Of a stretch of DNA of 64,000 nucleotides, positions 18,621-48,486 are shown piece by piece; position 1 is the first letter of the stretch; the number at the start of each line of letters is the position of its first letter. Origin of the DNA: an uncultured Alphaproteobacteria bacterium (GTDB lineage: Bacteria > Pseudomonadota > Alphaproteobacteria > RF32 > CAG-239). The stretch is from NCBI GenBank assembly GCA_944393215.1, contig CALXZL010000002.1, forward strand, positions 71,239 to 135,238, in the 5' to 3' direction. The position numbers were made by a program, and so were the translations under genes. The notes beneath the pieces were generated by a model that worked only from the letters and a program-made list of their open reading frames with translations, was not told the origin of the DNA and searched no databases.

Positions 18621-18695
18621 TCCGGCTTAGCTCAGCGGTAGAGCAATCGGCTGTTAACCGATCGGTCGCCTGTTCGAATCAGGCAGCCGGAGCCA
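18621..18695 (+). tRNA. tRNA-Asn (GTT)
   Basis: TCCGGCT/AGCCGGA acceptor stem, ATCGG-CTGTTAA-CCGAT anticodon arm, GTTCGAAT T-loop, encoded CCA. Confidence 0.96.
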
Positions 18696-18696
18696 T

Positions 18697-18731
18697 AAAA
18701 AAAATCCCTTCCTTGTGAAGGGATTTTTTTT
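18697..18731 (+). terminator. Terminator of the tRNA operon
   Basis: AAAATCCCTTC cttgt GAAGGGATTTTTTTT. Confidence 0.85.
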
Positions 18732-18733
18732 AT

Positions 18734-19004
18734 GCTTTTGGTTGTCTGATAAGAGCGGCGACCGAGGGAGCCTGTTTGATATCAGGCTCGAGGATATAAA
18801 ACACCGTTGCTCCGGTGTTTTATACCGCAAGAGGCGTAGTTTTGTTATTGAGCTAGCAAAGTGTGAGCTTTGCTCTGCGAAATTTACAAAACAAGTGACC
18901 GACGCGCGGTTAATAAGGCACAATGCACCGCCCTGCACAAAGTGAGCATCGCGATTTCAGTGTACAGCAAGAGCGTCGGTCGAACTTTATGGCTCCGGTT
19001 GGCT
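18734..19004. repeat. tRNA-Asn-derived structured element (inverted and direct tRNA fragments plus hairpins)
   Basis: Inverted T-arm/acceptor copy 18734-18765, direct T-arm copy 18770-18787, several hairpins, inverted 3'-end copy 18986-19004. Confidence 0.7.
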
Positions 19005-19010
19005 AATATT

Positions 19011-19199
19011 TTATTTCTGTCTATAGAGATTTACAATGGAAGCAACAACAGCCAAGACAATGCGTTGCCATACCGGTAGAGGAGAAAAAAATTCAACCCC
19101 CAGCATGACCAAATTTAATGTGGCTACAAAAGCCAACATCAAAATTCGAACAACGTAATTTTTCTCAATTGAAATTGAGATAGTGAACGTCTTTTCCAT
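19011..19199 (-). CDS. Small hypothetical membrane protein (62 aa)
   Basis: ATG start, two hydrophobic segments, occupies an otherwise empty gap. Confidence 0.55.
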   Translation of the reverse strand: MEKTFTISISIEKNYVVRILMLAFVATLNLVMLGVEFFSPLPVWQRIVLAVVASIVNLYRQK

Positions 19200-19385
19200 T
19201 TTCTTTTTTTTGATTATTTAACAATAATATTTAATTGCTATAACTTATAGCACTTTTTGTCCAATGTGTCAACTAGCAAATATCATATTTCTTTCAAAAC
19301 TATTTTTTATGATTTATAGATTCGTCAAAATTTTCTTGCCAAAATTCATGATTACGTTTAACTTTGCCGATAAAAGGAGAGGATA

Positions 19386-19694
19386 ATGAAAAAATTTAAT
19401 CGCCAAATTGAAGATTTTACTTGCGAACACTGCGGTCAAAAAGTCCACGGCAACGGCTACACTAACCATTGCCCGAATTGCTTATGGAGCAAACATGTAG
19501 ACATCAACCCCGGCGACCGTGCGGCAGATTGCGGCGGATTGATGGAACCTATTGCGGTTGAAATGAAAAACGGCATTTATATCCTCACTCAAAAATGCAC
19601 AAAATGCGGACATATCCGCCGCAACAAAGTTTGCGATGAAGATAATTTTGATGCCGTTATTGCCCTTTCCAAATCTATGATAAACAAACTATAA
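19386..19694 (+). CDS. RNHCP-domain zinc-binding protein
   Basis: FTCEHCG...TNHCPNCLWSKHVD..PGDRAADCGGLMEP...CTKCG. Confidence 0.88.
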   Translation: MKKFNRQIEDFTCEHCGQKVHGNGYTNHCPNCLWSKHVDINPGDRAADCGGLMEPIAVEMKNGIYILTQKCTKCGHIRRNKVCDEDNFDAVIALSKSMINKL

Positions 19695-20519
19695 CGCCTT
19701 ACTCTTCAGATAATCATTTATATAATCACAAACAAATTGTGCCTGCTCTTTATCCGGACAATATTCCAATAAATATCCAAACAAATTATCAAGTAATTTA
19801 TGTCTGATAATAAAGTCATATGACGGCTGATAATAAATTTCAAAAACGAAACATAAAATTTGAATTAATCTATCGGAAAAAGATTTATCGTCTCCTTTTC
19901 TGACCAAATCATGATTTTGAACTGCTTGCATAACCTTATCCGAAATCGGAGCATATTTATCTTCCTCAGACAAATATTCAAAAAACAAATCTTTAAAAAT
20001 ACGCTCATCATATTTAATTAGATAAAGATTGGCAATTTTATCGGCATCTTTGACCAAACCATAGAGCTCGCGCGTTTCTTCTTTTTCTTTTCCTTTCGGC
20101 ATTTGTTGAAATTCGGCATCATTTTCCAATGCGTCGGCAAGTTCACCATGACGTTTAACGGGAAGAAGCAAACGCAAATCGGTATAGCCTAAATCTTTAA
20201 GCATATCATAGCTGAAATGTCCATGATTATAATGCTGTGAAGAATTTTGCGAAAGCATATAAATTTCTTTAAACCGCCCGATATCATGAAACAGACAAAC
20301 AAGTTTACCTAAACGCCAAAATTCTTCCCCTCGATTTTGAAAACTTTTTTCTTGCTTCAGAATCAAATTTCCGGCACCGACAACTTGCATGGAATGCTTA
20401 ATTTTTTCCTTGGCAAAACCTTCAAAAAAAGTTTTTCCTCTCACTTTTTGCAAACAATCATCAAATGCGGCATAAAGCTGTTTCTGTTCGGTAGATACAT
20501 CAATACTATGCAAATTCAT
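19689..20519 (-). CDS. HD-domain phosphohydrolase
   Basis: KIKHS, LFHDIGRF, NHG, KRH, KDADK. Confidence 0.85.
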   Translation of the reverse strand: MNLHSIDVSTEQKQLYAAFDDCLQKVRGKTFFEGFAKEKIKHSMQVVGAGNLILKQEKSFQNRGEEFWRLGKLVCLFHDIGRFKEIYMLSQNSSQHYNHGHFSYDMLKDLGYTDLRLLLPVKRHGELADALENDAEFQQMPKGKEKEETRELYGLVKDADKIANLYLIKYDERIFKDLFFEYLSEEDKYAPISDKVMQAVQNHDLVRKGDDKSFSDRLIQILCFVFEIYYQPSYDFIIRHKLLDNLFGYLLEYCPDKEQAQFVCDYINDYLKSKAL

Positions 20520-20567
20520 ACAAAAACAAAAGCCGCAATTTCTTGCGGCTTTCCTCCAATATCAAAG

Positions 20568-21848
20568 TTAAGCCGATTTCTTATCTTCGGCAGATTTTTT
20601 GCCTTCTTTACGATAAACCAACTTTGGCGCTTTTTTATCATTGATAACTTTTTCATCAATGATGATTTCCTCAACATTTTTCTTATCGGGAATATCATAC
20701 ATCAGCTCAAGCAAATTTTCTTCCATAATGGCACGCAAACCACGCGCTCCGGTTTTACGTTCAATCGCTTTTTTGGCAATAGCTTTAAGAGCGGCATCGG
20801 TAAAGGTGAGTTTAACGTCTTCCATTTTGAACAAACTGTTATATTGGCGAACAAGCGCATTCTTAGGCTCTGTTAAAACTTTAATTAACGCCTCTTCATC
20901 CAAGTCTTCCAAAGTTGCAATAATCGGCAAACGCCCGACAAATTCGGGTATCAAACCATATTTAAGCAAATCTTCGGGTTCTACATCTTGCAAAATTTCA
21001 CCGACGCGTCTTTCATCGGGACCTCTGACTTCAGCTCCGAACCCGATAGAAGATTCCTTCCCTCTTCTACCGACAATTTTTTCCAAACCGGAAAAAGCGC
21101 CACCGCAAATAAAAAGAATATTGGTGGTATCCACGTGTAAAAATTCCTGCTGCGGATGTTTACGACCACCTTGCGGCGGAACATTGGCAACCGTCCCTTC
21201 AATAATCTTCAAAAGAGCTTGTTGGACACCCTCACCGGACACATCGCGCGTAATAGACGGACCGTCAGTTTTACGGGTAATTTTATCAATTTCATCAATA
21301 TAAACAATACCGCGCTGTGCTTTTTCAATATCGTAGTTGGCAGCTTGAACAAGCTTCAAGATAATGTTTTCAACATCTTCACCGACATATCCGGCTTCGG
21401 TCAAGGTTGTGGCATCGGCAATGGCAAACGGCACATCCAAAATTTTAGCCAAAGTTTGCGCGAGCAAGGTTTTACCGCAACCGGTAGAACCGATAAGCAC
21501 AACGTTAGATTTGGCAATATCAACATCACTTGTCTTTGAATCAATATTATTCAAACGTTTATAATGGTTATAAACTGCCACGGACAAAACCTTTTTAGCC
21601 TTTTCCTGACCAATGACATATTGATCTAAAAACTCTTTAATTTTAGAGGGTGTCGGCAAGTTTTCGGCATCGATTCCGCCTTCACGTTTAGCCTCTTCAG
21701 CCATTTCATCCGCAACGATATTGATACAAACTTCAATACACTCATCACAAATATAAACACCGCGCCCAGCCACCAGTTTTTTCACTTCTGATTGGCTTTT
21801 ACCGCAGAATGAACAATGCAACTCGCCGTTATCTTTATCTTCACTCAT
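20568..21848 (-). CDS. clpX: ATP-dependent Clp protease ATP-binding subunit
   Basis: CSFCGK zinc finger, [26 protein letters not shown] loop, TGARGLR. Confidence 0.98.
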
Positions 21849-21859
21849 CTTTCTAAATC

Positions 21860-22492
21860 CTATTTTGCAACAATTTCAGTTCTGTTAGCCACAATCTGGT
21901 CAATCAAACCAAATTTGAGTGCTTCTTCGGGTGTCATAAAATTATCTCTTTCCATAGCTTTTTCCACGACGGAAAGTTTTTGACCGGTATGGTGAGAATA
22001 TAATTTATTCATGCGTTTTTTCAACTCTACCAAATTACGGGCATGAATTTCAATATCCGTTACCTGACCTTTAAAACCGGAACTCGGTTGATGAATCATA
22101 ATCATGGAGTTTGGCAAAGAAAAACGTTTACCTTTAGTACCGGCAGCAAGCAAAAAAGATCCCATGGAGCAAGCTTGACCGATACAAACCGTATTCACAT
22201 CACAAGTTATATATTGCATGGTATCATACATAGCCATACCCGAAGTCACCGAACCACCGGGAGAATTGATATACATATAAATATCTTTTTTGGGGTTTTC
22301 CGATTCCAAAAACAGAAGCTGAGCACAAACAAGTGAAGCGACTTCATCATTAACTTCGCCGGTCAGAAAGATAATTCTTTCTTTAAGCAACCGAGAAAAT
22401 ATATCAAAAGAACGTTCACCTTTAGAAGTCTGCTCAATGACCATCGGGACAAGACTGCTGTTAAATACTTTTAAGGGATTTTCATCAAACAT
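21860..22492 (-). CDS. clpP: Clp protease proteolytic subunit
   Basis: [31 protein letters not shown]. Confidence 0.98.
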
Positions 22493-22586
22493 TTTATCTT
22501 CCTTATGCCGTAAATTACAATTTTTGAAAAGAATATACCAATATCATCAATAAAAAGTAAATAAAGGCAATAAAAAAGTTAAGAAA

Positions 22587-23999
22587 TTAGAGAAAACTTT
22601 CATAAACAAGACTATTTTTTCGTAATTGCTTATTTAATTCTTCTAAACCATATTTTTCAATTAATGTTTGCTGATTTTCATCAAACAAAGAAACCCCCAA
22701 CCCAAGCTTGGATGATTTGGAAGAAATATCGGCAGCCTCTATAATGGTTGGCATAATATCCACCCCGCTAAATTTTCTTGGTCTGATATTTTTTTGATCT
22801 GCTATTAAAATATTCACAAGAGTTCTCTCTCCGGAAAAAGAAGACATTGCTTGTGCAATCTCTTTATCCATGGATAAATGATCGCCAATAATTAGTAATA
22901 TTGTATCTTTATCTAAGCCCTCTTTATAAAACCATTGAACAAAATCAGAAATCTGCTTATCCGTACATAAAACAACATCTCTCCAATCTTGGTATTTTTT
23001 TTTGCAATTTTTTTCTAAATAATTATATGGATAATGCGTATTTACTGTTTCTGCAACAATAAAAAAATGTTCTTTTTTGTCACGCAATGCAAGTATATGT
23101 CTTTTTAAAAAATCATACATAAAACTATCTGGATACCCCCATGCACCACCATATAATCTTCCAGTCATATGTTTCCGAAAATAATTAACATCATAAATAT
23201 GCTCTTGTTTTACCCCATGCTCTTTCAAAAAAACATCTTTTCCACCAAATGTCGATGAAGCTGAAGTAACAAAATAATTTTTATATTCAAGAGAATTTAA
23301 AATATCTGGTAAACAAACCAAATTGGGCAAAAAATTATAATTGCTCCCATATTGATTATAAGAGACATCCACGTCAAGAGGAACACCACACAATGCCGTT
23401 ACCATACCGGCAATTGTCCAAGCACTCCCATATATTTGATAATACTTACCCATAGAATTTTGGGTCGATGAAAGTATTTGAAAGGAATCAAATAAGACAT
23501 TATATTTATTTTCCATGGATTCTAAAAAAAACACTACAATATTTTTTGAATCTGAATTTATTGAAAAATTTTCCTCTATCGGTTCTACATAATTTTTTTC
23601 ATAAAGATCCGAATATTCAAATTGATTTTGAATGTATGCAAAGAAATCATATTTCAAACATCCCCACAAGAATATGGGTACAAACAGGAGCATGCTTCCG
23701 CACAAAAAGACATAAGTTCCAAGTTTTTTCAATAACCAATAGAGAACACCTGCTCCCACCAAAAACAAAGCAACGGAAATAGAAAAAACCGTAACATACT
23801 CACCTTTCAAAGACATAATGTCTTTGGCATATTGTACATGGAAACAAATTTGTTCAAAAGATAGACCTTCAAAAAAATATTCTAAACTAAAAATAAAAAG
23901 TAATAAGAATATTGCAAATAAATATAAAAATATGGCAGCCGCTTGAAAAAATTTTTCTTTACTGGTTTTCACTTTTTTTCTCCACAATAATACAAACAT
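22587..23999 (-). CDS. LTA-synthase/MdoB-like membrane phosphotransferase (alkaline phosphatase superfamily)
   Basis: 3 N-terminal TM segments, FFLESME, AWTIAGM...CGVPL, TVNTH, IGDH; exact start uncertain. Confidence 0.85.
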   Translation of the reverse strand: MFVLLWRKKVKTSKEKFFQAAAIFLYLFAIFLLLFIFSLEYFFEGLSFEQICFHVQYAKDIMSLKGEYVTVFSISVALFLVGAGVLYWLLKKLGTYVFLCGSMLLFVPIFLWGCLKYDFFAYIQNQFEYSDLYEKNYVEPIEENFSINSDSKNIVVFFLESMENKYNVLFDSFQILSSTQNSMGKYYQIYGSAWTIAGMVTALCGVPLDVDVSYNQYGSNYNFLPNLVCLPDILNSLEYKNYFVTSASSTFGGKDVFLKEHGVKQEHIYDVNYFRKHMTGRLYGGAWGYPDSFMYDFLKRHILALRDKKEHFFIVAETVNTHYPYNYLEKNCKKKYQDWRDVVLCTDKQISDFVQWFYKEGLDKDTILLIIGDHLSMDKEIAQAMSSFSGERTLVNILIADQKNIRPRKFSGVDIMPTIIEAADISSKSSKLGLGVSLFDENQQTLIEKYGLEELNKQLRKNSLVYESFL

Positions 24000-24657
24000 T
24001 TTTACCTAAAATAGTTCCTTGCGTCAATTTATCCAAAAAACGACTAACGGGAAAAAGAAACCGATCATAAAATTTCAAGGTTACGGGAGAAATATCACCT
24101 TGTTTATTGCCGAAACATTTGAACAAAAGCGTAATAAAAAAGCCCAAAAAATCAGCATAAACAAGTTTTTCAATTTTCCACTTATTCTTATCGGCAAACA
24201 ACTTTATTAAAGCCGCTTTAGTATAGCGCCGATAATGCCCGACTTTTTTATCCATGGAAGAATAAAGCAAGTTAAAAGCGGGAAGATACAAAAAAATTTT
24301 TCCGTTCGGCGTTAACTTTCGATAAAAAGCATCAACAACGGCAACATCATCTTTGATATGCTCCAAAACATTTAAGGAATATATATAATGGATTGTTCCG
24401 TCAGAAAATTCATCCAAAGATTTGGCACAATTTTGATGATGATAAAATTTTTGCAAATTATCGGCAGGCTCAATACAAATAACTTGATTGCCGCTGTTTT
24501 TTTCTACTTCTCGGGCAATATCCCCCTCTCCAGAACCAAAATCTACAATTTGCAAATTTGGCTGATTGATGAGGGAACAAACACTTTTAACTAAAAATTG
24601 ATTATAATTTTTAGCTAATTTCAAAACGTCTAAATTATCTTCCCCCTGATATTGCAC
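23959..24657 (-). CDS. Class I SAM-dependent methyltransferase
   Basis: VDFGSGEG, LNVLEHI, LYSSMDKKVGHYRRY. Confidence 0.88.
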   Translation of the reverse strand: MQYQGEDNLDVLKLAKNYNQFLVKSVCSLINQPNLQIVDFGSGEGDIAREVEKNSGNQVICIEPADNLQKFYHHQNCAKSLDEFSDGTIHYIYSLNVLEHIKDDVAVVDAFYRKLTPNGKIFLYLPAFNLLYSSMDKKVGHYRRYTKAALIKLFADKNKWKIEKLVYADFLGFFITLLFKCFGNKQGDISPVTLKFYDRFLFPVSRFLDKLTQGTILGKNVCIIVEKKSENQ

Positions 24658-25599
24658 TTAACGGTCTCCGACGGCAGGATAATTAAGATATGCCATACGC
24701 CGCACCTCTTTTCTGCTTTTGCTGACACTGTCCAAAATAAGACCGACCAATAAAGAAATCACGGCAAGTATCATCAACCCCATAGCCAAAAAAGCTCTGG
24801 GAAAACGCAACACTTGATGCGTTTGAAAAAAGTCTTCCACTACCGGCAAGCCAAAGCACAAAGACAAAATAAAAAAGAAAATTGTAAACAAACTAAAACA
24901 AAACAAAGGGCGTTCATCTTTAATCAGATTCACAATCATTAAAAGGATTCGCATCCCGTCCTTATAAGTCGCCAATTTGCTTTCCGAACCCAACGGTCGA
25001 GCAAAATAATCCGTTTCAATTTCTTTAAAAGGGATTCTTGAAGAAAGAGCATGGACAGTTAATTCCGTTTCAATTTCAAAACCGGCAGATTGAGCTGGAA
25101 AAGATTTAACAAACCGCTTAGAAAAAACTCTGAAACCAGAAAGCATATCAACCAAATTTTGCTTAAAAAATTTCTGAACCAATTTAGTCAACAAAATATT
25201 ACCGGTCCGATGTCCCACACGATAAGCCGCCAAATCAACCTCTTTTCTGGCACCGATAACCATATCCAAATTATTTTTCACCAATTCATCAATTAAATCG
25301 GGCGTACGTTTAATATCATATGTCTTATCCCCGTCACTCATAACATAAATATCGGCATCAATATCGGCAAACATCCGCCGAACCACATTGCCTTTACCCT
25401 GATAATATTCTGATCTGACGATTGCACCGGCTTTTCGCGCTTTTTCTGCAGTTTTATCGGTTGAATTATTATCATAGACATAAATATCGGCATCCGGCAG
25501 ATATTTTCTAAAATCGGCAACAACTCCGGCAATGGAAATTTCCTCATTATAACAAGGAATAATCACGGCAATTTTTTTATTTGGTATCATCATCTTCAT
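24658..25599 (-). CDS. GT2-family glycosyltransferase (polyprenol-phosphate glycosyltransferase-like)
   Basis: IIPCYNEE, YDNNSTD, GKGNVVRRMF, DGD, DMLSGFR, FEIETE; 2 C-terminal TM segments; start approximate. Confidence 0.9.
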   Translation of the reverse strand: MKMMIPNKKIAVIIPCYNEEISIAGVVADFRKYLPDADIYVYDNNSTDKTAEKARKAGAIVRSEYYQGKGNVVRRMFADIDADIYVMSDGDKTYDIKRTPDLIDELVKNNLDMVIGARKEVDLAAYRVGHRTGNILLTKLVQKFFKQNLVDMLSGFRVFSKRFVKSFPAQSAGFEIETELTVHALSSRIPFKEIETDYFARPLGSESKLATYKDGMRILLMIVNLIKDERPLFCFSLFTIFFFILSLCFGLPVVEDFFQTHQVLRFPRAFLAMGLMILAVISLLVGLILDSVSKSRKEVRRMAYLNYPAVGDR

Positions 25600-27289: not shown

Positions 27290-27412
27290 TATACCCTCTT
27301 CTGCTCAACAGGATATAATTTCTTTCGTAATAAAAAAACTTTAAAAAAATTTATACACAAAATAAAAAAAAAGCCCGACCAAAAGATCGGACTTTTCAAA
27401 ATGCAGCAAAGA

Positions 27413-28819: not shown

Positions 28820-28862
28820 CAATACTCTCTTCAATTAGGGTTAAACCATCTCACAAAAGAGA

Positions 28863-28947
28863 TGGTGCGAGCGGAGAGACTCGAACTCTCAAACCGAAAG
28901 GCACCAGATCCTAAGTCTGGCGTGTCTACCAATTTCACCACGCTCGC
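28863..28947 (-). tRNA. tRNA-Leu (TAG)
   Basis: Reverse complement GCGAGCG...CCAGA-CTTAGGA-TCTGG...long variable arm...GTTCGAG...CGCTCGC ACCA; typical position upstream of tig. Confidence 0.95.
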
Positions 28948-29096
28948 AACTACTTATTTTTGCTTGCATAGTAAAGAAAAAAAATTTTAAATCAAGACTA
29001 AATTCACAACCTGATAAAAATAATTGTAATATAAGTTAATATTCTATATGATGAGGACAAAAGCGTTTTTTTAATTATAATTTTGGGAGTAAACCG

Positions 29097-30266: not shown

Positions 30267-30282
30267 CTGTAACTTATAATTT

Positions 30283-30312
30283 AAAGAGGGTTCGGCTGAA
30301 CCCTCTTTTTTC
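30283..30312 (+). terminator. Intrinsic terminator
   Basis: AAAGAGGGTTC ggct GAACCCTCTTTTTT. Confidence 0.8.
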
Positions 30313-37318: not shown

Positions 37319-37321
37319 GAG

Positions 37322-38170: not shown

Positions 38171-38270
38171 AAAAACATCCTTACAATATTATAATAAAAT
38201 CAGAATAACCGGCAAAGCATACTTTTTCAAGTAAAACCATGCCGGTCATCACCGTAAAATTTGTGCAGGA

Positions 38271-39068: not shown

Positions 39069-39142
39069 AATTTAAACCTTTCAAAACATTAAACATATCA
39101 ATAAAATATTTTTTTATAAAATAAAAGTAAACACAAAAAAAC

Positions 39143-39721: not shown

Positions 39722-39774
39722 ATTTTCCTCTCTTAAAAATATGGATATTTTATATAGATATGTTTTATAAAAGC

Positions 39775-41664: not shown

Positions 41665-41738
41665 TCTTTTCTCCTAAAAAATAATATAAATTAATATGAT
41701 ACTATTTTTCAATATTACAAGTTAAAATATAATAAAAA

Positions 41739-42158
41739 TTATTTTTTCTTGCGAAAAGAAAAATATTTATGCAAAAGATACGTCAATATAGTTGAGATAA
41801 TGAGATAAGCTGCCTGCCCGACCAATGGATAAAGACCAAGCACGCGCACAAATAAATTAAGCGCAAAGGCATTAAAAAAATACATCCCGATATAAACCGT
41901 CCATGCCTTAAAATATTCGGCTTTGATATTGCCATGACTTTGAAAAACATAATAACGCATGGTGATAAAAGACACATTGACGGTTATAAAATATTGTATA
42001 ATCAGCGCCGGATTGTACGGAATTTTGGCAAGTTCAAACAATGCCGCAAAAACACAATAGGCAAAAACGGTATTAAACCCGCCCACCAAAAGAAAACGGA
42101 TTTTCTGGTTTATTTTAAACCAAATACGTTCGATTTTTTTATAAAGCTCAATTATCAT
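41739..42158 (-). CDS. GtrA-family flippase
   Basis: RFLLVGGFNT, RYYVF, YLLHKYFSF; 4 TM segments. Confidence 0.88.
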   Translation of the reverse strand: MIIELYKKIERIWFKINQKIRFLLVGGFNTVFAYCVFAALFELAKIPYNPALIIQYFITVNVSFITMRYYVFQSHGNIKAEYFKAWTVYIGMYFFNAFALNLFVRVLGLYPLVGQAAYLIISTILTYLLHKYFSFRKKK

Positions 42159-42982
42159 TGAATTTCATCAGCAATTTTTTTATCAAGGAGCGTTTCCAAC
42201 TCTTTGGTACGCCATGGAGAAAGCACGTTTTCATCAAACACATTTTCCATATGCTCTTTATCCACCTCTGGCATTGCCGGATGAATGCCCACTTCCACAG
42301 CTTTATATTTTTCAGGAATTTTCAAACCTTTGAATCGATTCTTTGAAAGTTTACATGTATATAAGATGCTGTAAAAATAAGTATCCGTCGGATAATTATT
42401 CCAGAAAACAAGGGAACGCAGAACCAAATATTTAATCAAACCACCGTCATGAAGATAGCTTTTGTCGTCATTATATTTGAGGGTGTTGAAAATATCTTCA
42501 TTCATTACGCGGATTCTTGGAATTTTATATTCTTCGGCGAGTTTTTTGACCACTTTGAAAATCACCGGAATATGATGAATATGGCGGTGACTGTCAATGT
42601 GAGAAAGCTCAATTCCGAGTTTAATGGCTTTCTCAATCTGCGCTCTGGCTTCCAATTCAACTTGACGCGCCAATTCTTTGGGATGAAGTATGGAAAGTAA
42701 AAACAAATTTACAAAACCGTTTTTAAATTCTCCGTTGGCATCAGCAAGAAGTGGAATGTTTTGCGGAACGGAGAGTGCATATTGATTAGTCAAATTAAGA
42801 TGCAAGCCCACATCCAAATTAGGCATATCTTTTTTTAAATCAAGAGCTTCTTTAACGAAGTTCAAGTTAATCATAATGCTGGTAGAATTTAAAATTCCGT
42901 CATGATAAGCTTTGGCAATCGCTTGATTAACCCCTGGTGTCATGCCGAAATCATCAGCATTAAATATCTTTTTCAGAGCCAT
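42155..42982 (-). CDS. YdjC/ChbG/HpnK-family carbohydrate deacetylase (NaxD-like)
   Basis: NADDFG, GLHLNL, HIDSHRHIH, HP. Confidence 0.9.
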   Translation of the reverse strand: MALKKIFNADDFGMTPGVNQAIAKAYHDGILNSTSIMINLNFVKEALDLKKDMPNLDVGLHLNLTNQYALSVPQNIPLLADANGEFKNGFVNLFLLSILHPKELARQVELEARAQIEKAIKLGIELSHIDSHRHIHHIPVIFKVVKKLAEEYKIPRIRVMNEDIFNTLKYNDDKSYLHDGGLIKYLVLRSLVFWNNYPTDTYFYSILYTCKLSKNRFKGLKIPEKYKAVEVGIHPAMPEVDKEHMENVFDENVLSPWRTKELETLLDKKIADEIQ

Positions 42983-43943
42983 TTCGTACTACCTTTTTCA
43001 CCTCTTCCTGCGTTTCATAATCAGCCATATAAAGCGGACGCTTTTTCACTTCCATATGGATTTTGCCGATATATTCGCCAATAATACCCAAAACAATCAG
43101 CTGGACTGCCCCTAAGAAAATCATGGTAACCATAATTGTAGCATAACCGGGGGTTGGCTTGTGCAAAATAAAATGCTCCCCAATAACATACAAACCGAGC
43201 AAACCGGCAATAAATGCGGTGATTACTCCCAAATAAGTTGAAAAACGCAATGGTTTGACTGAAAATTGGATGATTGAATTAACGGCAAGTTGCAAACTTT
43301 TGCGGAAATTATATTTAGATTCGCCGGCGTGACGTTGCGGCGCCACAAAGTCCAAAACCTTCACTTTGTCATTAGGCATAATCCAGCTGAGCAAACCACG
43401 GAACAATCTGTCTTGCTCATTGAAGTTTTTCAAAAAGTCGATATATTTGCGGTCAATAAGCCGAAAATCGGGTGTTTTTTCGGGAATTTTGGTATCAGAA
43501 AGCAAATTCAAAATCTTATAAAAACTTTTGGCGCAGAATTTATAAAATGCCGAGGTGTCGACATTATCCACGCGGCGGGTTAAGACAATATCATAGCCTT
43601 CTTGCCATGCTTCCACCATTTGTTTGATGTAAAGAGGCGGATGTTGCAAATCGGCATCCATAAAAATAACAGCCTCGCTTAAAGCATAATCCATACCGGC
43701 AGTCATGGCAATTTCGTGTCCGAAATTGCGTTTGAGATGCACAATTTTAACGTGTTTGTCTTTTTTTTGCAAAGCTTGACATTTGGCATGTGTTTTATCA
43801 GAGCTACCGTCATCGACATAGATAATTTCATAAGTTTTGACACTTGTATCTTTCAAAACTTTTTTCAGTTCTTTATACAATGCCTCAACATTATCTTCTT
43901 CATTATAGGCAGAAACAACAATACTAACCGAATCTTTAGTCAT
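42960..43943 (-). CDS. GT2 undecaprenyl-phosphate glycosyltransferase (GtrB/ArnC-like)
   Basis: SAYNEE, VDDGSSD, RNFGHE, DADLQHPP, DFRL, LGIIGEYIG. Confidence 0.92.
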   Translation of the reverse strand: MTKDSVSIVVSAYNEEDNVEALYKELKKVLKDTSVKTYEIIYVDDGSSDKTHAKCQALQKKDKHVKIVHLKRNFGHEIAMTAGMDYALSEAVIFMDADLQHPPLYIKQMVEAWQEGYDIVLTRRVDNVDTSAFYKFCAKSFYKILNLLSDTKIPEKTPDFRLIDRKYIDFLKNFNEQDRLFRGLLSWIMPNDKVKVLDFVAPQRHAGESKYNFRKSLQLAVNSIIQFSVKPLRFSTYLGVITAFIAGLLGLYVIGEHFILHKPTPGYATIMVTMIFLGAVQLIVLGIIGEYIGKIHMEVKKRPLYMADYETQEEVKKVVRNGSEKDI

Positions 43944-45408
43944 AGTTCACCTCTGTTACAGGATCTAAAAAGCCATAATAAATGGTCTTGGTCTTTAGCT
44001 TACCAATTCGATTTTTAAATTCAAGCTTATATTCACTGGGCTCGCTCATATTGGGATAGATACTTTTCAAATTCATATAAGAATTTTTATTAGGAAAGAC
44101 CACCAGCGCTCCGCTTGAGAGAATATCATTTTTATCAAACCAAGGCGTATTTTCGGGTTTCATACCGGCAACCGGCTTAGGTTGAGCTTCGGCAAAAATT
44201 GATAAATTAGCAATATACCAAATCTCCCCGCCCACATATTTCAAAGGCTTGTCGGTATGAAGTTTCCAAGCATAAGACATGTCTTGAGCAAACTTTTGAT
44301 AAGGGAAATTGATTTTTTCACTCTTATTAAAGATGATAACCGAAAGTGCGGCAACAACAAACAATGTCATAGCCACATAAACGGATTTCACGGTTTTGCG
44401 GAAATTAATATCGGAAAGTTTATATGGAAAATATGCAAAAAGAACAATACCAAGCATATACAATGTTGGAAAGCCCCACATACTTTTGAGTTTGCTTCCG
44501 CTGACAAGAGCCACGGCGGCAAATAAAAATACCGGCAAGATTCCCATATAGAACAAGAATTGTTTTTTATCTTTGGTCAAATAGTTTGCTTCTTTTTCTC
44601 CGCGACGATAACTCAAATAAAAGAGCAATATTGTCATCAGAGCAAACAAAATCTGAGAACCGAGGAATTTTACCGGATAGAAGAAATGTGCCCAAATTTG
44701 AGCGCCGAGTGTTTGTGCACCGGTTCCGGTTCTTCTCATTAAATATTCAAAAGAATAAAAGTCATTTTGATAGAGCCACCAAACATGTGGAGCAATGACG
44801 ATAAGGAAAAGAACAAAAGTGATATAAGGGCCAACCTTTTTAAACTGCGCTCTTCCCTCGGGGGTAAAGAACAAATAGAGTGCCATACACAAAAGCTCGA
44901 TTCCGCCCACATATTTGTTAAGCATATTTAATCCGGCAAATAAACCCGTTAAAATCCAAGCGCTCATGGTATTTTTGTTCAAAGCTTGCAAGAAATAATA
45001 AGCGGTTAAAGGCCACAAAGCCAAAGAAACCACATTAACGTTATATTCTTGCGCGCTGAAACCATAATAGATAACACCTTCCAGAAGCATAACCGATAAA
45101 ACGGCTTTACCTTCGGATAAAAAGCATTTAGCAAGCTTAAAAATAAAGATGAAACCGATGAGGACTAAAATTTGATTAAGCAGATAAATCCCCGCCTGCC
45201 CAAAGATTTGATAAAACCACTCGGCAGGAAATCCAGACAAAGGCGGATGTTTATTAGTTCCGAGGTCACAATATCTGCCCCAAGTAATAGCCTCCACACT
45301 ATCCATAGGCAGGCTTTGGCGCATTAAGGGGACAACAAACCACAAAACAAAGTGTATTGAAAGGAATATGAGTAAATTTTTGTTACATACGTTTCTCATC
45401 GGTTGCAT
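43936..45408 (-). CDS. ArnT/PMT-like (GT39/GT83) membrane glycosyltransferase
   Basis: D..EAITWG, KHPPL, LNKY, PHVWW; many TM segments. Confidence 0.85.
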   Translation of the reverse strand: MQPMRNVCNKNLLIFLSIHFVLWFVVPLMRQSLPMDSVEAITWGRYCDLGTNKHPPLSGFPAEWFYQIFGQAGIYLLNQILVLIGFIFIFKLAKCFLSEGKAVLSVMLLEGVIYYGFSAQEYNVNVVSLALWPLTAYYFLQALNKNTMSAWILTGLFAGLNMLNKYVGGIELLCMALYLFFTPEGRAQFKKVGPYITFVLFLIVIAPHVWWLYQNDFYSFEYLMRRTGTGAQTLGAQIWAHFFYPVKFLGSQILFALMTILLFYLSYRRGEKEANYLTKDKKQFLFYMGILPVFLFAAVALVSGSKLKSMWGFPTLYMLGIVLFAYFPYKLSDINFRKTVKSVYVAMTLFVVAALSVIIFNKSEKINFPYQKFAQDMSYAWKLHTDKPLKYVGGEIWYIANLSIFAEAQPKPVAGMKPENTPWFDKNDILSSGALVVFPNKNSYMNLKSIYPNMSEPSEYKLEFKNRIGKLKTKTIYYGFLDPVTEVNYD

Positions 45409-45492
45409 CTTTCATATAAGTAAACACAATAATTTATTTGTAATATTAAGGACAAATGATGTCAAACTCAATTCATGACATTTGCATAATAA

Positions 45493-45855
45493 TTATTTCC
45501 ACCCTTTAAGCCTCTGATAAATATTAACAGATGTTTTGGCAATAAGGGCTTTGAACGTATTAAGACCGTTTTCTTGCCAAATGTTCATCAAAATATCGGT
45601 TGCTTGTTTACGGGTATAAATATCTTTGTGCTGGCACATATAATCGTGAAAACAAGCTGCCTTAATACCTTGACGCAAATCTTTGTTGGAAAAGAGCAAC
45701 GTAAATGGCGCCGGAACGGAAATACCGTCAAAGACAAAATCTTTCGGTACGGTTATGTTCTCATAAGTAAGTTCTCTTAAAGTAATATAATTAATACCAG
45801 ACACGGCAAAATCATAAATTTTATGACGAGTATATTTTCTTTTTAATCGTTCCAT
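45493..45855 (-). CDS. DUF1353-like phage protein
   Basis: ITVPKDFVFDGISVP...AACFHDYMC...TRKQAT. Confidence 0.8.
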   Translation of the reverse strand: MERLKRKYTRHKIYDFAVSGINYITLRELTYENITVPKDFVFDGISVPAPFTLLFSNKDLRQGIKAACFHDYMCQHKDIYTRKQATDILMNIWQENGLNTFKALIAKTSVNIYQRLKGWK

Positions 45856-46361
45856 GAAATATTCTCCAATTCTTCTTCAGAGGTTGCGGTTTCAATTTGA
45901 GCTTTGAGAGCGGTTGCTTTTTGGTGACAAGTATTAGACCATTCAGCCAGCGCCACACTCAAACCCATGAGTTCTTGAGCTGTTAGTTCTATTGTTGAGT
46001 TATCTTGGCAAGTCCAAGTAATGGTCGGCACATCTTCCGCCATTATTGCCGCTTGCATAGATTGCGCAGCACCTTGAATACGAATACATGAGACAATATC
46101 GCTGTCAAAAGTTTTACCCATATATTCAAATCCGCCTTGTTCGGCAGCATCTCGAGCAGCATTAATTTCGGCTCGTTTTTCTGTTTTAAGTTCATCCAGC
46201 GGCTTTTGAGGAGCGTACCCCTTCTCCCATAAAGAGCCGTCATAAGCGGTCTCGGTTTGACTTTCATCAATGGTAATTGTCCAACCGAGAGATTTAGCCA
46301 CCTGAACAAAAGGTGTGCGGTTTCCGATTCTGTGATTTTCTATTTTTTCAACGTATAACAT
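45843..46361 (-). CDS. DUF4376-like phage tail-fibre-associated protein
   Basis: KRAEINAARD...GGFEY.G..FDSD...WTCQDNSTIELT...LKAQIE.A. Confidence 0.8.
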   Translation of the reverse strand: MLYVEKIENHRIGNRTPFVQVAKSLGWTITIDESQTETAYDGSLWEKGYAPQKPLDELKTEKRAEINAARDAAEQGGFEYMGKTFDSDIVSCIRIQGAAQSMQAAIMAEDVPTITWTCQDNSTIELTAQELMGLSVALAEWSNTCHQKATALKAQIETATSEEELENISWND

Positions 46362-47941
46362 TATTCTTTGCCTCCCTCAGCATAGATAAATTTAAAACTA
46401 TTTATGGAAGAAACGCTATAGCTCAACTGAACAACATCTCCTTTTTTCACGGCGACGGAAGCCGTTAAGCTCACATTATTTTCATACCCTCGATAACAAA
46501 CATCAACCATCCCCGTATTCTGGTTAGTTAATTTAAGAAAATGGCTGGCAGAAGTCATATATCCCAACACCCAATATATTCCGGCAGCCGGCGCTGTATA
46601 AGTGTTATTATTGGCAGCAGATAAATCAATATATGTGTCCGAAGGCATCGAAAGATCTGCAATCAAATTTTTTGCCGTATGGGTAATATTAGCAAAATCA
46701 ACATCGGCTCTGTTATTTAATATTTCATTAGTAACAATAATACTTGCTTCTGCTACTGATGAATAAAGAACAACATAAGCTTTCAAAGTCACAAATTTAG
46801 ATGCCGTGGAAGCATCTGTAATAATTCCCGAATAATCCGGGTTTGGAGTAACACCAATAATATTATAATTTTTTGTGCTAGTTCCTACGTTAGCATAATG
46901 AGTTCCTACTCCCGCCCCAAAACCATTTGTGCCGGCATTCATATAAGATGCGTTAGAACCCATAAGAGTATAGTTATAAGTTCCATCAGTCAAACCGATA
47001 GATAAACCGTTACCTTTTACCGGAAGAGTAGAATTAAAATCAATAATATATTTATCGAGCAATTTAGGCACTTTAAATGTTTGAGATGAAATATCCAAAG
47101 CAAATAATTCACAATAGCCCTGAGCAGAAACCATACTATCAAAATCATCTATTGTTGTACTTTGTAATTTTTCATCTACAAGCATTTGATAAACGTCGGG
47201 AAACATTTCTTTAGTATATTCAGCGCCATTGCACCAAACCCCGCCATTAGGAGCATCCGTACGAGCTGTATATTGAATATCACCTATGTTTCCAAATGAT
47301 GCTTTAGCAGCTGCAATTTGAGCTGTTTCAGCAGCCTCAACGGCAGATTGTGCGCTGGTTTGAGCCTGTATTTCAGCCGCCTGAGCAGAAGCGGCACTAT
47401 TCTGAGCCTGCAAAGCGCAATTTTGAGCAATATCTTTAGCAGAAGAAGCCTCTACAATCAAATTATCAGGATTAATCAGAGAATTAGTCAAAGCGGAAGC
47501 TTCTTGATTCCAAACCAATGCTTTTCCTGCGGAAGGAAGGGGTAAAGAAGTACTAACACCTTCTTGCGCATAAGGAGGATAAATCATAGAGCGCCCAATT
47601 TTTTCATCTAACTGTTCCAACGTTGCCACCTGATAATCAAGTTCATGATTAATCACTTTAGCTCGGAAAGCTCCACCTTCTTGAAAATCGGAAGTTCTTT
47701 TTATTTCAAGATTCCGAATAATTGTAATTCTCGTTCCGTTAGACGGAGGTTCGGCAAAAACAACCTTACCGCCATAACTATTTTCATTAATTGTCACATT
47801 ATAACCTGAATCAGTTAGTGTTTCATCCAAATATACATCCAGATCACCGGCTTCAAAGATTTGGAAATTAAAATTAAATTCCTGCACTTCACCGTCAGCA
47901 ATATAATGTACGACAATTTTTTGTTTTGTATCCAAAACCAT
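46361..47941 (-). CDS. Phage tail fibre protein (podophage/T7-type N-terminal attachment domain)
   Basis: ADG...F.FNFQIF...DLDV, GGKVVF..PP, RTSDFQEGGAFRAKVIN.ELD; Ala-rich stalk; IGDI collar-like motif. Confidence 0.85.
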   Translation of the reverse strand: MVLDTKQKIVVHYIADGEVQEFNFNFQIFEAGDLDVYLDETLTDSGYNVTINENSYGGKVVFAEPPSNGTRITIIRNLEIKRTSDFQEGGAFRAKVINHELDYQVATLEQLDEKIGRSMIYPPYAQEGVSTSLPLPSAGKALVWNQEASALTNSLINPDNLIVEASSAKDIAQNCALQAQNSAASAQAAEIQAQTSAQSAVEAAETAQIAAAKASFGNIGDIQYTARTDAPNGGVWCNGAEYTKEMFPDVYQMLVDEKLQSTTIDDFDSMVSAQGYCELFALDISSQTFKVPKLLDKYIIDFNSTLPVKGNGLSIGLTDGTYNYTLMGSNASYMNAGTNGFGAGVGTHYANVGTSTKNYNIIGVTPNPDYSGIITDASTASKFVTLKAYVVLYSSVAEASIIVTNEILNNRADVDFANITHTAKNLIADLSMPSDTYIDLSAANNNTYTAPAAGIYWVLGYMTSASHFLKLTNQNTGMVDVCYRGYENNVSLTASVAVKKGDVVQLSYSVSSINSFKFIYAEGGKE

Positions 47942-47954
47942 AAAACAATCTCCT

Positions 47955-47984
47955 AAAAAAAAATCTCACTCAAGGGAGTGAGAT
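47955..47984 (-). terminator. Terminator whose U-tract abuts the tail-fibre RBS
   Basis: ATCTCACTC aagg GAGTGAGAT preceded by A9; AGGAG RBS at 47950-47954. Confidence 0.7.
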
Positions 47985-47994
47985 AATTTAAAAC

Positions 47995-48027
47995 AAAAAA
48001 AGAGCCTTCTAAAAAAGAAGGCTCTTT
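47995..48027 (-). terminator. Second terminator upstream of the tail-fibre gene
   Basis: AAAGAGCCTTC taaaaaa GAAGGCTCTTT preceded by an A-run. Confidence 0.7.
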
Positions 48028-48135
48028 CAAGATACACTTATTCCAAGTGATATAATCTGAATAACCTATAAAAAGACATTTGTCAAGGAATAAATTCCTA
48101 ATGTGAATAAAATAAGATTAGAAAAAAAATAATGA

Positions 48136-48164
48136 TTGACAAACGAGATAATAGATATTATTAA
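48136..48164 (+). promoter_or_regulatory. Putative sigma70 promoter of tRNA-Met
   Basis: TTGACA-17 nt-TATTAA. Confidence 0.6.
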
Positions 48165-48179
48165 AGACATGAATTTGAT

Positions 48180-48255
48180 GGCGGGTTAGCTCAGTCGGTA
48201 GAGCGGAGGAATCATAATCCTTGTGTCGTGGGTTCGAATCCCTCACCCGCTACCA
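48180..48255 (+). tRNA. tRNA-Met (CAT), elongator type
   Basis: GGCGGGT/ACCCGCT stem, GAGGA-ATCATAA-TCCTT anticodon arm, GTTCGAAT, encoded CCA; lacks the initiator C1:A72 and 3 G:C features; Ile2 not fully excluded. Confidence 0.9.
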
Positions 48256-48258
48256 ACT

Positions 48259-48286
48259 AAAAAAGACAGTGCAAACTGTCTTTTTT
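48259..48286 (+). terminator. tRNA-Met terminator (copy 1)
   Basis: AAAAAAGACAGT gcaa ACTGTCTTTTTT. Confidence 0.85.
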
Positions 48287-48302
48287 CATTTTAAAGTTCC
48301 GT

Positions 48303-48486
48303 AGGGATTTGAACCCACGAGGCGTGGGTTTGAACCGCCGAAGGAAGGCAGACGGAAGTATGCCGGTTTTGCTTTGCAAAGCAAAATCCTTCAAGGTCGG
48401 CGTTAAGAAAACTTTTTATAAAAAAGTTTTTAGCCCATCCCTCACCCGCTACCAACCTAAAAAAGACAGTGGAAACTGTCTTTTTT
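48303..48486. repeat. tRNA-Met-derived structured element ending in a duplicate of the tRNA 3' end and its terminator
   Basis: Inverted T-arm 48303-48320; direct half T-arm 48323-48334; 102-nt hairpin-rich insert; 48437-48486 repeats 48238-48286. Confidence 0.85.

Follow-up and report, generated by a model that had tools for sequence, protein, structure and literature searches.

The stretch of DNA analysed here (64,000 nucleotides, "the window") carries, directly behind a tRNA-Asn and a tRNA-Met gene, short GC-rich inserts bounded by pieces of the preceding tRNA, and the question is whether these represent an undescribed system in which a mechanism acting in trans copies or recognises the T-loop, as a first-pass annotation had proposed. 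We find that the two sites are members of a conserved family of small non-coding elements located behind many tRNA genes; a recurrent family with locally templated ends stands, while the undescribed system and the trans-acting copying are not supported. Judged by sequence, the build of the elements is that of the long-known E. coli "tRNA-linked repeats" (TLRs), and no new kind of system is involved. The best explanation, to which we give an even chance, is a joint one, namely TLR-type elements that arose by cis-templated palindrome extension and tandem duplication around conserved read-through RNA modules.

Architecture of the two elements

A unit of the family consists of an inverted copy of the tRNA 3' half, a short direct T-arm piece, a shared GC-rich core, a direct 3' copy (the last 10-22 nt of the tRNA), and a copy of the trailer and terminator. 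Units may be arranged in tandem, and the core family is found behind many different tRNAs in either orientation. The features at tRNA-Asn are:

18621..18695, + strand: tRNA-Asn(GTT), source of the local copies (ARAGORN; Rfam tRNA, 68.5 bits)
18694..18734, + strand: intrinsic terminator T1 of tRNA-Asn, 18-pair hairpin and T run
18735..18765, + strand: left module, in register with T1, degenerate inverted copy covering about positions 76 to 42 of tRNA-Asn
18770..18787, + strand: direct T-arm copy GCCTGTTTGATATCAGGC, T-loop TTCGA>TTTGA
18795..18824, + strand: 12-bp perfect hairpin, part of the shared core
18810..18928, - strand: Family-A core, reversed relative to tRNA-Asn (nhmmer, C2 90166-90048)
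18929..18985, + strand: second repeat module (GGCACAATGC..AGCATCGCG..) (BLAST)
18986..19007, - strand: inverted copy of the tRNA-Asn 3' end and first trailer bases, 22 nt, 86% complementary to 18678-18699

T1 forms the centre of a long quasi-palindrome (antidiagonal analysis, offset -1), the arms of which, 18678-18711 and 18717-18750, are 82% complementary over 34 nt, and 18757-18765 is the exact reverse complement of 18662-18670. The mismatches in the left module are mostly C>T changes, which keep G.U pairing in RNA of the tRNA sense, and the module is kept in congeners, where it follows the C/T difference of the tRNA in its variable loop. The Family-A core of this site is common to 12 other places in the genome and to many gut Alphaproteobacteria, and the second repeat module also occurs away from tRNAs in the same genome, outside the window. 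Five of the six parts annotated at tRNA-Asn were recovered; the sixth, a direct copy of the tRNA 3' end, is in fact inverted here. Since two congeners (G010 and G006) hold a canonical direct copy, GCCGGAGCCA, with a terminator at this place, the 3'-end copy of the present genome is a rearranged variant.

At tRNA-Met the features are:

48180..48255, + strand: tRNA-Met(CAT) (ARAGORN, Rfam tRNA)
48259..48286, + strand: terminator T1 of tRNA-Met, 12-bp hairpin with A run and T run
48303..48320, + strand: inverted T-arm copy, reverse complement of tRNA positions 64-47 (17/18)
48323..48334, + strand: left part of the direct T-arm, CGTGGGTTTGAA, about tRNA 48-59, TTCGA>TTTGA
48335..48436, + strand: Met-type structured core with three hairpins, 92-95% identity in five congeners
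48437..48454, + strand: direct copy of the last 18 nt of tRNA-Met (18/18)
48459..48486, + strand: duplicate terminator T2, a repeat of T1

Here every annotated part was borne out, and the change of TTCGA to TTTGA is present in the direct T-arm copies of both sites. The inverted T-arm copy, which is complementary to 48226-48243, lies in register with T1 (offset +1) and forms with CGTGGGTTTGAA a 12-bp hairpin that includes two G.U pairs. The direct copy co-varies with the acceptor stem of the tRNA in congeners: the acceptor of this genome differs from that of five congeners, and the copy tracks it.

Recurrence, register and conservation

All tRNA flanks of the 1.72-Mb genome were aligned with the tRNAs, a check suggested by the annotation, calling copies at a score of at least 24. 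Copies of the own tRNA, direct and inverted taken together, were found at 13 of 39 downstream flanks, far above chance, and at upstream flanks in 2/42 (direct) and 0/42 (inverted) cases. Direct copies are present at eight of the 39 downstream flanks, with the own tRNA at the top of all 43 in each of the eight, and inverted copies at nine, the own tRNA being strictly best in seven. The earlier statement that the tRNA-like parts match the local tRNA and not each other is confirmed by this scoring of each flank against all tRNAs.

The inverted copies are placed with respect to the terminator. In this genome 12 of the 13 tRNAs with an exact inverted run of at least 8 nt have it within 4 nt of the terminator antidiagonal, against 1/18 of those with shorter runs; in other genomes 14/29 lie within 4 nt and 27/29 within 8, against 0/8 of the shorter runs within 4, these thresholds (run of at least 8, within 4 nt) having been chosen after the data were seen.

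A search with nhmmer gave 13 matches to the Family-A core in this genome, in both orientations, and the core motif was found in more than 115 stretches, nearly all from metagenome-assembled genomes of gut or rumen Alphaproteobacteria. In the loci fetched, the core lies downstream of 38 of 45 tRNAs, and the direct copy is best matched by the own tRNA in 24 of these 38 core-bearing loci. Between species, the Met-type element is 92-95% identical, compared with 73-90% for the flanking coding sequence, and the Ser-type element 90-100%, compared with 66-85% for its flanks; exchange between species could be an alternative source of this conservation. Compensatory changes were seen in 8 of 54 predicted pairs, and consensus folding of Family A is weak (-5 kcal/mol). 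The inserts matched none of the Rfam families, RtT among them, with hits accepted up to E <= 10, and no promoter-like site was found inside either element.

Gain and loss of units can be followed among congeners at tRNA-Ser(GGA): in G012 the tRNA and terminator are followed by the flank with no extra unit, in G006 the same flank comes after one added unit ending in CTATCCGCCA, trailer and terminator, and in G009 the module is reduced to its first 12 nt. At tRNA-Met the number of units varies among congeners, and two terminator alleles have been homogenised in different directions in different species. Both tRNA-Met and tRNA-Asn show concerted evolution of the tRNA and its copies.

Relation to E. 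coli TLRs and other known systems

According to PMC8144298, the first description of TLRs is that of Egan & Landy (1978) and their catalogue that of Rudd (1999), and over the last 18-19 nt a TLR matches the 3' end of the adjoining gene exactly; the same source places RrA/B/F between dual terminators and describes them as produced by read-through. The E. coli group comprises the 178-bp repeats of tyrT/tyrV, with RttR (rtT RNA), the repeats of the lys operon, and rrA/rrB/rrF behind 5S rRNA. At lysQ, the tRNA and terminator are followed by GATTCGAACCTGC (inverted), GCAGGTTTGA (direct, TTCGA>TTTGA), a core, an 18-nt 3' copy and a duplicate terminator, the inverted copy being in register with the terminator by hand count, and the tyrT/tyrV repeats have positions 77-56 copied in inverted form, together with a direct copy of 19 nt. 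This identical order of parts speaks against an undescribed system. RttR is annotated as an RNA of 171 nt that begins 7 nt behind tyrV and has its end at the CCA of the direct copy. Among 50 E. coli tRNA genes examined, eight have a direct copy, five of these also with an inverted copy (score of at least 24).

Like TLRs, the present elements stand directly 3' of a tRNA gene (in TLRs a tRNA or rRNA gene) in one to several tandem units, with an inverted T-arm copy, a direct T piece carrying TTCGA>TTTGA, a GC-rich hairpin core and, as in lysQ, a duplicated terminator. They differ in that their cores have no detectable sequence relation to those of E. coli, in that tRNAs of at least 15 anticodons share a single core family, which occurs in both orientations, and in their host, an uncultured gut alphaproteobacterial lineage. 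Moreover, unlike in tyrT, the first terminator here always separates the tRNA from the element. What is new is the register of the inverted copy with the terminator hairpin, by which tRNA 3' half, terminator and inverted copy make one long quasi-palindrome; the direct repeat of about 50-60 nt, formed by direct 3' copy and terminator, that bounds one unit, with filled and empty sites among congeners; the co-variation of the copies with the local tRNA; the sharing of cores by tRNAs of so many anticodons in gut Alphaproteobacteria; and the conservation of the cores above their flanks.

As in island att duplications and integrase-less cis-mobilisable remnants (CIMEs), foreign DNA lies between direct repeats of the 3' part of the tRNA, the left one belonging to the intact tRNA, but the present elements have no integrase, possess an inverted copy, take the terminator into the repeat, and hold an insert of only 100-200 nt with one core at many tRNA species. 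REP/BIME sequences with RAYT and the palindrome-associated elements derived from IS200/IS605 are likewise small, hairpin-rich, mosaic and non-coding intergenic repeats beside terminators; here, unlike in REP/BIME, the ends are copies of the neighbouring gene and not fixed hairpins, and the elements do not co-occur with a Y1 transposase. Copies ordered forward - inverted - forward and joined at short inverted repeats, as described in PMC11790251 and PMC7202029, offer an analogy of mechanism only, in which the junctions would here be the terminator hairpin and the T-arm; the present copies are bacterial, involve no origin and measure tens of bases, not kilobases. An analogy may also be drawn with the sRNAs that stem from 3' external transcribed spacers and dual terminators (3'ETS-leuZ, RrA/B/F), which in PMC8144298 are RNAs from stable-RNA operons made by read-through or processing.

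Origin of the tRNA-derived ends and maintenance of the cores

We propose that the adjoining gene serves in cis as the template for the tRNA-derived parts, with no enzyme reading T-loops in trans. As the geometry suggests, a strand or template switch at the quasi-palindrome would carry the palindrome of the terminator hairpin on into the tRNA 3' half, and a second turn at the T-arm would give forward - inverted - forward copies, a miniature inverted triplication. Such a cis switch explains why the inverted copy is in register with the terminator palindrome, and nothing was found that points to a T-loop-copying enzyme. The in-register rule cannot be universal, because in the E. coli tyrT repeats no terminator separates the inverted copy from the tRNA. 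Unequal crossing-over or gene conversion at the direct repeat of tRNA 3' end and terminator would then account for the gain and loss of units and for their homogenisation with the tRNA. Cores probably move from one tRNA flank to another through the near-universal palindromic T-loop motif GGTTCGAA, by recombination or by a template switch, and this would explain both the junctions in or beside the T-loop and the two orientations of the core. They may be kept as structured RNA, transcribed by read-through past the first terminator, with a 3' end that could be cut tRNA-like at the repeated CCA end, by analogy with E. coli RttR and RrA/B/F.

Selection on such RNA might by itself hold the tRNA-matching parts, each tRNA having evolved its own rather than being templated, with the inverted copy pairing in read-through transcripts with the tRNA 3' half or the downstream 3' copy, and the long duplex serving as fail-safe terminator, processing site or decoy. 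In the predicted read-through folds the tRNA 3' half pairs with the inverted copy (Asn, -80.5 kcal/mol, z -9.7; Met, -56.0 kcal/mol, z -5.5), the mismatches at tRNA-Asn are six of G.U type and none of A.C type, and the change of TTCGAA to TTTGAA in both arms of the Met hairpin retains G.U pairs in six species. The left module persists without a core in G008 as well as behind Val(TAC), Pro(GGG) and Ser(CGA), and the conservation of the elements above their flanks is also as expected. Nevertheless, we consider this reading unlikely: that one genome acquired at least 13 such adaptations independently is implausible unless a templating step was involved, and the acceptor-complement part of the inverted copy has decayed at tRNA-Met and E. 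coli lysQ with the spacing retained. Selection at the RNA level is also not proven by the whole-arm alignments, because their overall excess of G.U-type over A.C-type mismatches is only modest (33 vs 19). RNA contigs reached no further than the tRNA and 38 nt of the element in a relative.

Alternatively, the core could be an active non-autonomous mobile element (MITE- or PATE-like) inserted into the T-loops of tRNA 3' copies by a trans enzyme, a HUH Y1 transposase or unknown recombinase recognising the T-arm hairpin, with repair duplicating a target of about 50-100 nt. This would fit the position of the core exactly between T-loop positions 58 and 59/60 in the E. coli Lys and Tyr TLRs and in Met and Leu(CAG) of this genome, its two orientations, expected of the palindromic TTCGAA, its spread behind so many anticodons, and the multi-copy IS200-type Y1 transposase of this genome. 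We nonetheless hold it to be improbable, given that the direct-copy boundary is spread over tRNA positions 51-65 and not fixed at a single site, that copies at different loci are 77-93% identical and never the same, that the tRNA-matching ends are local rather than conserved terminal repeats, and that the IS ends have no BLAST similarity to the cores. Among 41 genomes, core and IS200-type HUH transposase do not co-occur (both in 7, core only in 9, transposase only in 9, neither in 16), and of the nine genomes with the core alone, six have a completeness of 99-100%; the HUH/REP-type process suggested earlier is thus not supported, and neither is the suggested RNA-mediated process, as no RVT_1 reverse transcriptase was found in the genome. 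Decayed nested attL/attR scars or CIMEs of tyrosine-integrase islands are far less credible. They would yield a direct repeat of the tRNA 3' end, and the genome has tRNA-integrated islands, marked by an orphan 3' fragment of tRNA-Gly near 70.8 kb on C1, and ten PF00589 matches, but an inverted copy in register with the terminator is no att feature, the duplication includes the whole terminator, one core family behind so many anticodons does not suit site-specific integrases, and the units are tandem and conserved across species. The annotation was right that no integrase or transposase is adjacent and that this is not an ordinary att duplication (PF00589, 0/10, and PF01797, 0/1 matches on the window's contig), though its decoy att site is not supported either, no integrase accompanying the sites; the neighbours are housekeeping genes (near the two sites glyA, rpiB, clpX, ROK, MarC and TerC). 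An artefact of the metagenome assembly, to which the presence of several copies at contig ends might point, has a negligible probability, as an independent 2507-nt DNA contig from another study spans 48226-48900 with six differences and two gaps, these elements recur at orthologous sites in 5-6 other genomes, and the same build is present in the finished genome of E. coli K-12.

Anatomy of the elements downstream of tRNA genes

The tRNA genes of the window, as placed by ARAGORN and Rfam, and the parts that follow tRNA-Asn and tRNA-Met are as follows.

tRNA genes of the window and parts of the Asn and Met sites (window coordinates)
18523-18695: tRNA-Cys and tRNA-Asn
18694-18734: terminator, Asn site
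18735-18765: degenerate inverted copy of the entire tRNA 3' half, Asn site
18770-18787: direct T-arm copy with TTTGA, Asn site
18986-19007: tRNA 3'-end copy in inverted orientation, Asn site
28863-28947, minus strand: tRNA-Leu(TAG)
48180-48255: tRNA-Met(CAT)
48259-48286: terminator, Met site
48303-48320: inverted T-arm copy, 18 nt (17/18), Met site
48323-48334: direct T-arm piece, TTCGA changed to TTTGA, Met site
between the direct T-arm piece and the direct 3' copy: hairpin-rich insert, Met site
48437-48454: direct copy of the tRNA's terminal 18 nt (18/18), Met site
48459-48486: second terminator copy, Met site

Behind tRNA-Met, the order that the first-pass annotation had proposed (terminator, inverted and direct T-arm copies, insert, copy of the tRNA 3' end) proved exact at every part. 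At the Asn site the proposed terminator, inverted copy and direct T-arm copy are likewise present, but the 3'-end copy at 18986-19007, which had been taken as direct, is inverted. At this locus, unlike the source genome, two congeners (G010 and G006) carry a canonical direct copy (10 nt) followed by a terminator, and the inverted copy of the source genome is thus a rearranged variant.

Every tRNA of the source genome (1.72 Mb in 27 contigs, 38% G+C, 43 tRNA genes) was aligned, on both strands, with the 450 nt on either side of it, with the flanks of all other tRNAs as control, and flanks with an own-tRNA score of at least 24 were considered positive. Downstream, direct copies were found in 8/39 flanks, with the own tRNA as best match in 8/8, and inverted copies in 9/39, with the own tRNA strictly best in seven, giving 13/39 positive flanks when the two are united, against 2/42 (direct) and 0/42 (inverted) in the upstream control flanks. 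The pattern therefore recurs, with specificity for both the 3' side and the local tRNA, in agreement with the earlier observation that the tRNA-like parts match the neighbouring tRNA and not each other. Neither flank of tRNA-Leu(TAG), the fourth tRNA of the window, holds a copy of it (scores 14–16), which makes this gene a negative control within the window. Upstream matches to the own tRNA are confined in this genome to tRNA-Thr(TGT) (contig C3:109706-109781), with a long direct partial self-copy (score 80), and tRNA-Val(GAC) (contig C23:12020), with a shorter one (score 40), and may represent decayed duplicates of these tRNAs or scars left by islands.

The direct 3' copy is exact at Met (18/18), Leu(CAG) (19/19), Lys(CTT) (16/16), Asp (14/14) and Glu(CTC) (12/12), and inexact at His (21/22) and Arg(CCG) (17/19). 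The His locus of the source genome has one full and one truncated unit, more than one unit or module is present at Arg(CCG), Lys(CTT), Leu(CAG) and a tRNA-Gly fragment, and the part with the inverted copy stands alone, with no core, at Val-TAC, Pro-GGG and Ser-CGA. The inverted copy and the 3' copy do not always pair in a closing stem, which has 6–8 bp at Met and His but is reduced to an overlap of ~2 nt at Leu(CAG). Behind tRNA-Ser(GGA), congener G012 shows a site without a unit (tRNA, terminator, flank), and G006 has the same flank preceded by one additional unit, which ends with the tRNA's terminal 10 nt, trailer and terminator; in G009 the module is reduced to its first 12 nt. As the Ser(GGA) element is also found in the most distant congeners, loss between the ~52-nt direct repeats is likelier than gain.

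Several core copies lie at contig ends of the source genome. An assembly artefact is nevertheless ruled out by a DNA contig of 2507 nt, obtained in another study, that covers 48226-48900, and by orthologous sites in other genomes, which hold the same elements. A possible joined form in run X5, linking 48001 to 48477 with 13 other letters, was set aside as uninterpretable; the table of joints holds none.

Relation to E. coli tRNA-linked repeats and register with the terminator

In E. coli K-12, the parts behind lysQ are its terminator, an inverted T-arm without mismatch (GATTCGAACCTGC), a direct T-arm in which TTCGA has become TTTGA (GCAGGTTTGA), a GC-rich core, the 18-nt tRNA 3' end and a second terminator copy, and the 178-bp repeats of tyrT/tyrV contain an inverted copy of tRNA positions 77-56 in addition to the known 19-nt direct copy. 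Among 50 tRNA genes examined, from 86 found in E. coli, a direct copy is present in 8/50 and is accompanied by an inverted copy in 5/8 (score at least 24); the other three Lys units have an inverted match of 9/10. Since lysQ and tyrT/tyrV share the architecture described here, the elements of the source genome belong to the known, poorly understood kind of tRNA-linked repeats (TLRs), with which they also share the position directly downstream of a tRNA on the same strand, a unit 3' end formed by the last ~18–19 nt of the upstream RNA gene, and the occurrence as one to several tandem units per locus. According to the passages of PMC8144298 cited here, E. coli TLRs have been known since 1978, their origin has no accepted account, and 22 of them occur at ten loci, each with 18–19 bp identical to the upstream tRNA or rRNA 3' end. 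The family recognised in the first-pass annotation is thus real, conserved and wider than was then seen, whereas its description as an undescribed system has to be given up, this architecture being already known from E. coli. The inserts themselves differ, as RtT, the Rfam family of the E. coli tyrT repeat, gave no covariance-model match to those of the window even at E ≤ 10, and no other Rfam family fits them (whole window at the gathering score; E ≤ 10 in 18400-19200 and 48100-48600). In the literature collection searched, nothing matched non-autonomous tRNA-downstream elements with an inverted T-arm repeat.

The position of the inverted copy is not free, as it shares its antidiagonal with the terminator stem, so that the tRNA 3' half, the terminator and the inverted copy form a single long quasi-palindrome. 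With thresholds chosen post hoc, the data having already been seen, the inverted copy lies within 4 nt of this register in 12/13 tRNAs of the source genome with an exact inverted run of at least 8 (the exception has a poor terminator call), compared with 1/18 for shorter runs, where 9 further tRNAs have no terminator call. In other genomes, under the same thresholds, 14/29 are within 4 nt and 27/29 within 8 nt, and among shorter runs 0/8 are within 4 nt. For E. coli, a hand count puts lysQ in register, and tyrT has no terminator at the corresponding place.

Past the inverted copy come a tight turn, the direct T-arm piece, the core and the remaining tRNA 3' end, an order by which the core interrupts the T-loop of an incomplete tRNA copy at Met, Leu(CAG), and E. 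coli Lys and Tyr. A single insertion nucleotide (58/59) holds for E. coli Lys and for Met and Leu(CAG) of the source genome, but elsewhere the boundary is variable, the direct copy starting at tRNA positions 51 to 65; this count leaves out rows starting at position 47, which stem from complete tRNA genes nearby, and the numbering of long-arm tRNAs in it is unreliable. The register, the junctions and the unit structure are new anatomical points relative to TLRs as described in the cited part of PMC8144298.

Shared cores and concerted evolution

The main shared core, family A, has 13 copies in the source genome (BLAST and iterated nhmmer), which stand in one orientation behind His, Arg(CCG), Lys(CTT) and an orphan tRNA-Gly 3' fragment, and in the opposite one behind Asn, Val(GAC), Leu(CAG) and a tRNA-Pro(CGG)-like fragment. 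Another core is common to Met and Ser(GGA), and Leu(CAG) carries a three-module mosaic. An 18-nt motif of family A was found in at least 115 stretches in a scan with one genome per species. Among the matches listed, the hosts are nearly all uncultured gut or rumen Alphaproteobacteria, a tRNA lies within 400 nt at 42/80 fetched loci, the motif is downstream of 38/45 tRNAs in these loci, with at least 15 anticodons represented, and the own tRNA is the best match to the direct copy in 24/38.

At the Pro-like locus (C3:196950-197350) a family-A unit is flanked by two 3' fragments that match the tRNA-Pro(CGG) tail exactly, although the intact gene is on another contig (C2:226495); in other metagenome-assembled genomes the same unit follows the intact gene. 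A second repeat module (..GCACAAAG..AGCATCGCGG..CAGTCAA..GATCAAGC..) is present at window positions 18929-18985 and also in tandem in plain intergenic DNA (C9:25800-26200 and C2:161900-162300, both outside the window), and its occurrence away from tRNAs indicates that the genome has a wider set of mosaic intergenic repeats. In a more distant congener (G004) a different core type is found at tRNA-Met, in 2.x tandem units, and at tRNA-Ser-GGA, where the inverted copy fits this genome's own, different T-stem. Cores thus turn over at a fixed site.

The copies change together with their tRNA. Five congeners depart from the source genome in the acceptor stem of tRNA-Met, with matching differences in the downstream direct copy, and the Asn inverted copy tracks a C/T difference in the variable loop of tRNA-Asn. 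In G012 and G009 the two Met terminators are different alleles; the source genome, G005 and G006 have both homogenised to one allele, whereas in G010 and G001 both are of the other. Unit number also varies, with two full Met units in G005 and a variable number of His units.

Between species, Met-type elements are 92–95% identical, compared with 73–90% for flanking coding and 74–82% for upstream intergenic sequence, and Ser-type elements 90–100%, compared with 66–85% for their flanks. The elements of the gut lineage are thus probably under purifying selection. The Ser-GGA elements of G005 and the source genome are 98.3% identical, with 66% in the upstream flank, a likeness that may be greater than constraint by itself would produce and may reflect exchange of elements between species. 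Variation sits in hairpin loops, with compensatory changes at 8/54 predicted pairs, and the predicted fold of the Met element has z = -3.7 in the tRNA sense and z = -2.8 for the complementary strand. The family-A consensus fold is weak (-5 kcal/mol, 15 pairs).

Possible origin, mobility and function

Several known classes of mobile DNA could be considered for these elements. Retrons or other elements dependent on reverse transcriptase, including models with tRNA-primed cDNA, were rejected, as RVT_1 (PF00078) has 0 matches in the source genome, which is 100% complete by marker genes. A decoy att site had also been proposed, but 0/10 integrase hits (PF00589) of the source genome lie on C2, the contig of the window, the neighbours of the elements are housekeeping genes, and the inverted copy is present, all of which argue against an integrase att site or a CIME. 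An origin from IS200/IS605 or as a REP/RAYT repeat would be in line with the IS200-type HUH transposase found in several copies in the source genome. However, across 41 genomes the core and the Y1 transposase (PF01797) occur independently (both in 7, core only in 9, transposase only in 9, neither in 16), so that 9/16 core genomes lack PF01797 and 9/16 PF01797 genomes lack the core, absence from a draft not being proof, and the IS ends have no similarity to the cores.

A classical MITE is disfavoured, because the inverted ends reproduce the local tRNA and so differ from one site to the next, and the duplication is of ~50–60 nt. As to a fixed target tetra- or pentanucleotide with fixed subterminal hairpins, as in IS200/IS605-derived elements, junctions follow TTCGA/TTTGA at some loci, but the first position of the direct copy varies from 51 to 65. 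Copies at different loci of the source genome are 77–93% identical, with identity only among tandem units, and their comparison gave no sign of recent transposition. Taken together, the evidence favours templating in cis over the enzyme copying the T-loop in trans that had been put forward in the first-pass annotation.

For such cis templating we propose that a nascent strand would turn at the terminator hairpin and copy the tRNA 3' half backwards, and that a second turn at the T-arm would give the series of forward, inverted and forward copies, after which the long direct repeat could drive gain, loss and homogenisation of units. In yeast, on a larger scale, template switching at short inverted repeats gives the same forward-inverted-forward order, as stated in the cited part of PMC11790251. 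Cores might then pass between tRNA flanks via the shared palindromic T-loop motif, which would explain both the two orientations and the T-loop junctions. In this concrete, testable model of origin, the terminator and the T-arm would be the places where the palindrome is extended and an inverted triplication arises.

Regarding function, tRNA-linked TLRs have no known one in the cited part of PMC8144298, where RrA/B/F are made by read-through between dual terminators. The annotated E. coli RttR begins 7 nt past tyrV and finishes at the CCA of the direct copy. By analogy, the elements are probably read-through RNAs with the copied tRNA tail as 3' processing signal. In a read-through transcript the inverted copy is predicted to form a long duplex with the 3' half of the tRNA, at -80.5 kcal/mol (z -9.7) for Asn and -56.0 kcal/mol (z -5.5) for Met, and no promoter-like sites were found inside the Asn or Met element. 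The excess of G.U over A.C mismatches (33 vs 19 over 451 aligned columns) is too weak overall to prove selection at the RNA level, Asn alone being striking (6 vs 0). Metatranscriptome contigs from two runs cover only the tRNA and 48332-48369 (one run, 38 nt, from a relative, with 3 differences) and are silent on expression.

A broader reading, which we regard as rather improbable, would make TLR-type elements of Enterobacteria and gut Alphaproteobacteria one widespread and mechanistically distinct tRNA-templated class, seeded and moved by a T-loop-specific process, with cores that are read-through RNAs hijacking tRNA 3' processing via the copied tail and an anti-tRNA arm that senses or controls read-through. 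The process in question would be either template switching through T-loop microhomology, at tRNA genes with their high transcription, or a hypothetical nuclease or recombinase specific for the T-arm.

With TLR anatomy present in a gut lineage that is distant from E. coli and has a small genome, what was a curiosity of one species becomes a general property of tRNA loci in bacteria. In practice, these elements mimic att sites and tRNA fragments and break assemblies, and should be recognised by island finders and annotators.

The IS200-type element of the source genome encodes a 166-aa Y1/HUH transposase (PF01797, E 8e-33), with a full copy at C7:~330-900, and is present in several collapsed copies, four contig ends overlapping by 77 nt. 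A solitary 59-nt copy of the IS hairpin end plus terminator lies between the MarC and TerC genes at window positions 50580-50638 (C2:121818-121876). ARAGORN also placed a tmRNA with the tag ANDNNVAPVAMAA at C2:69452-69781, ~1.5 kb before the window start, marked by an asterisk that we take to denote the permuted two-piece form.
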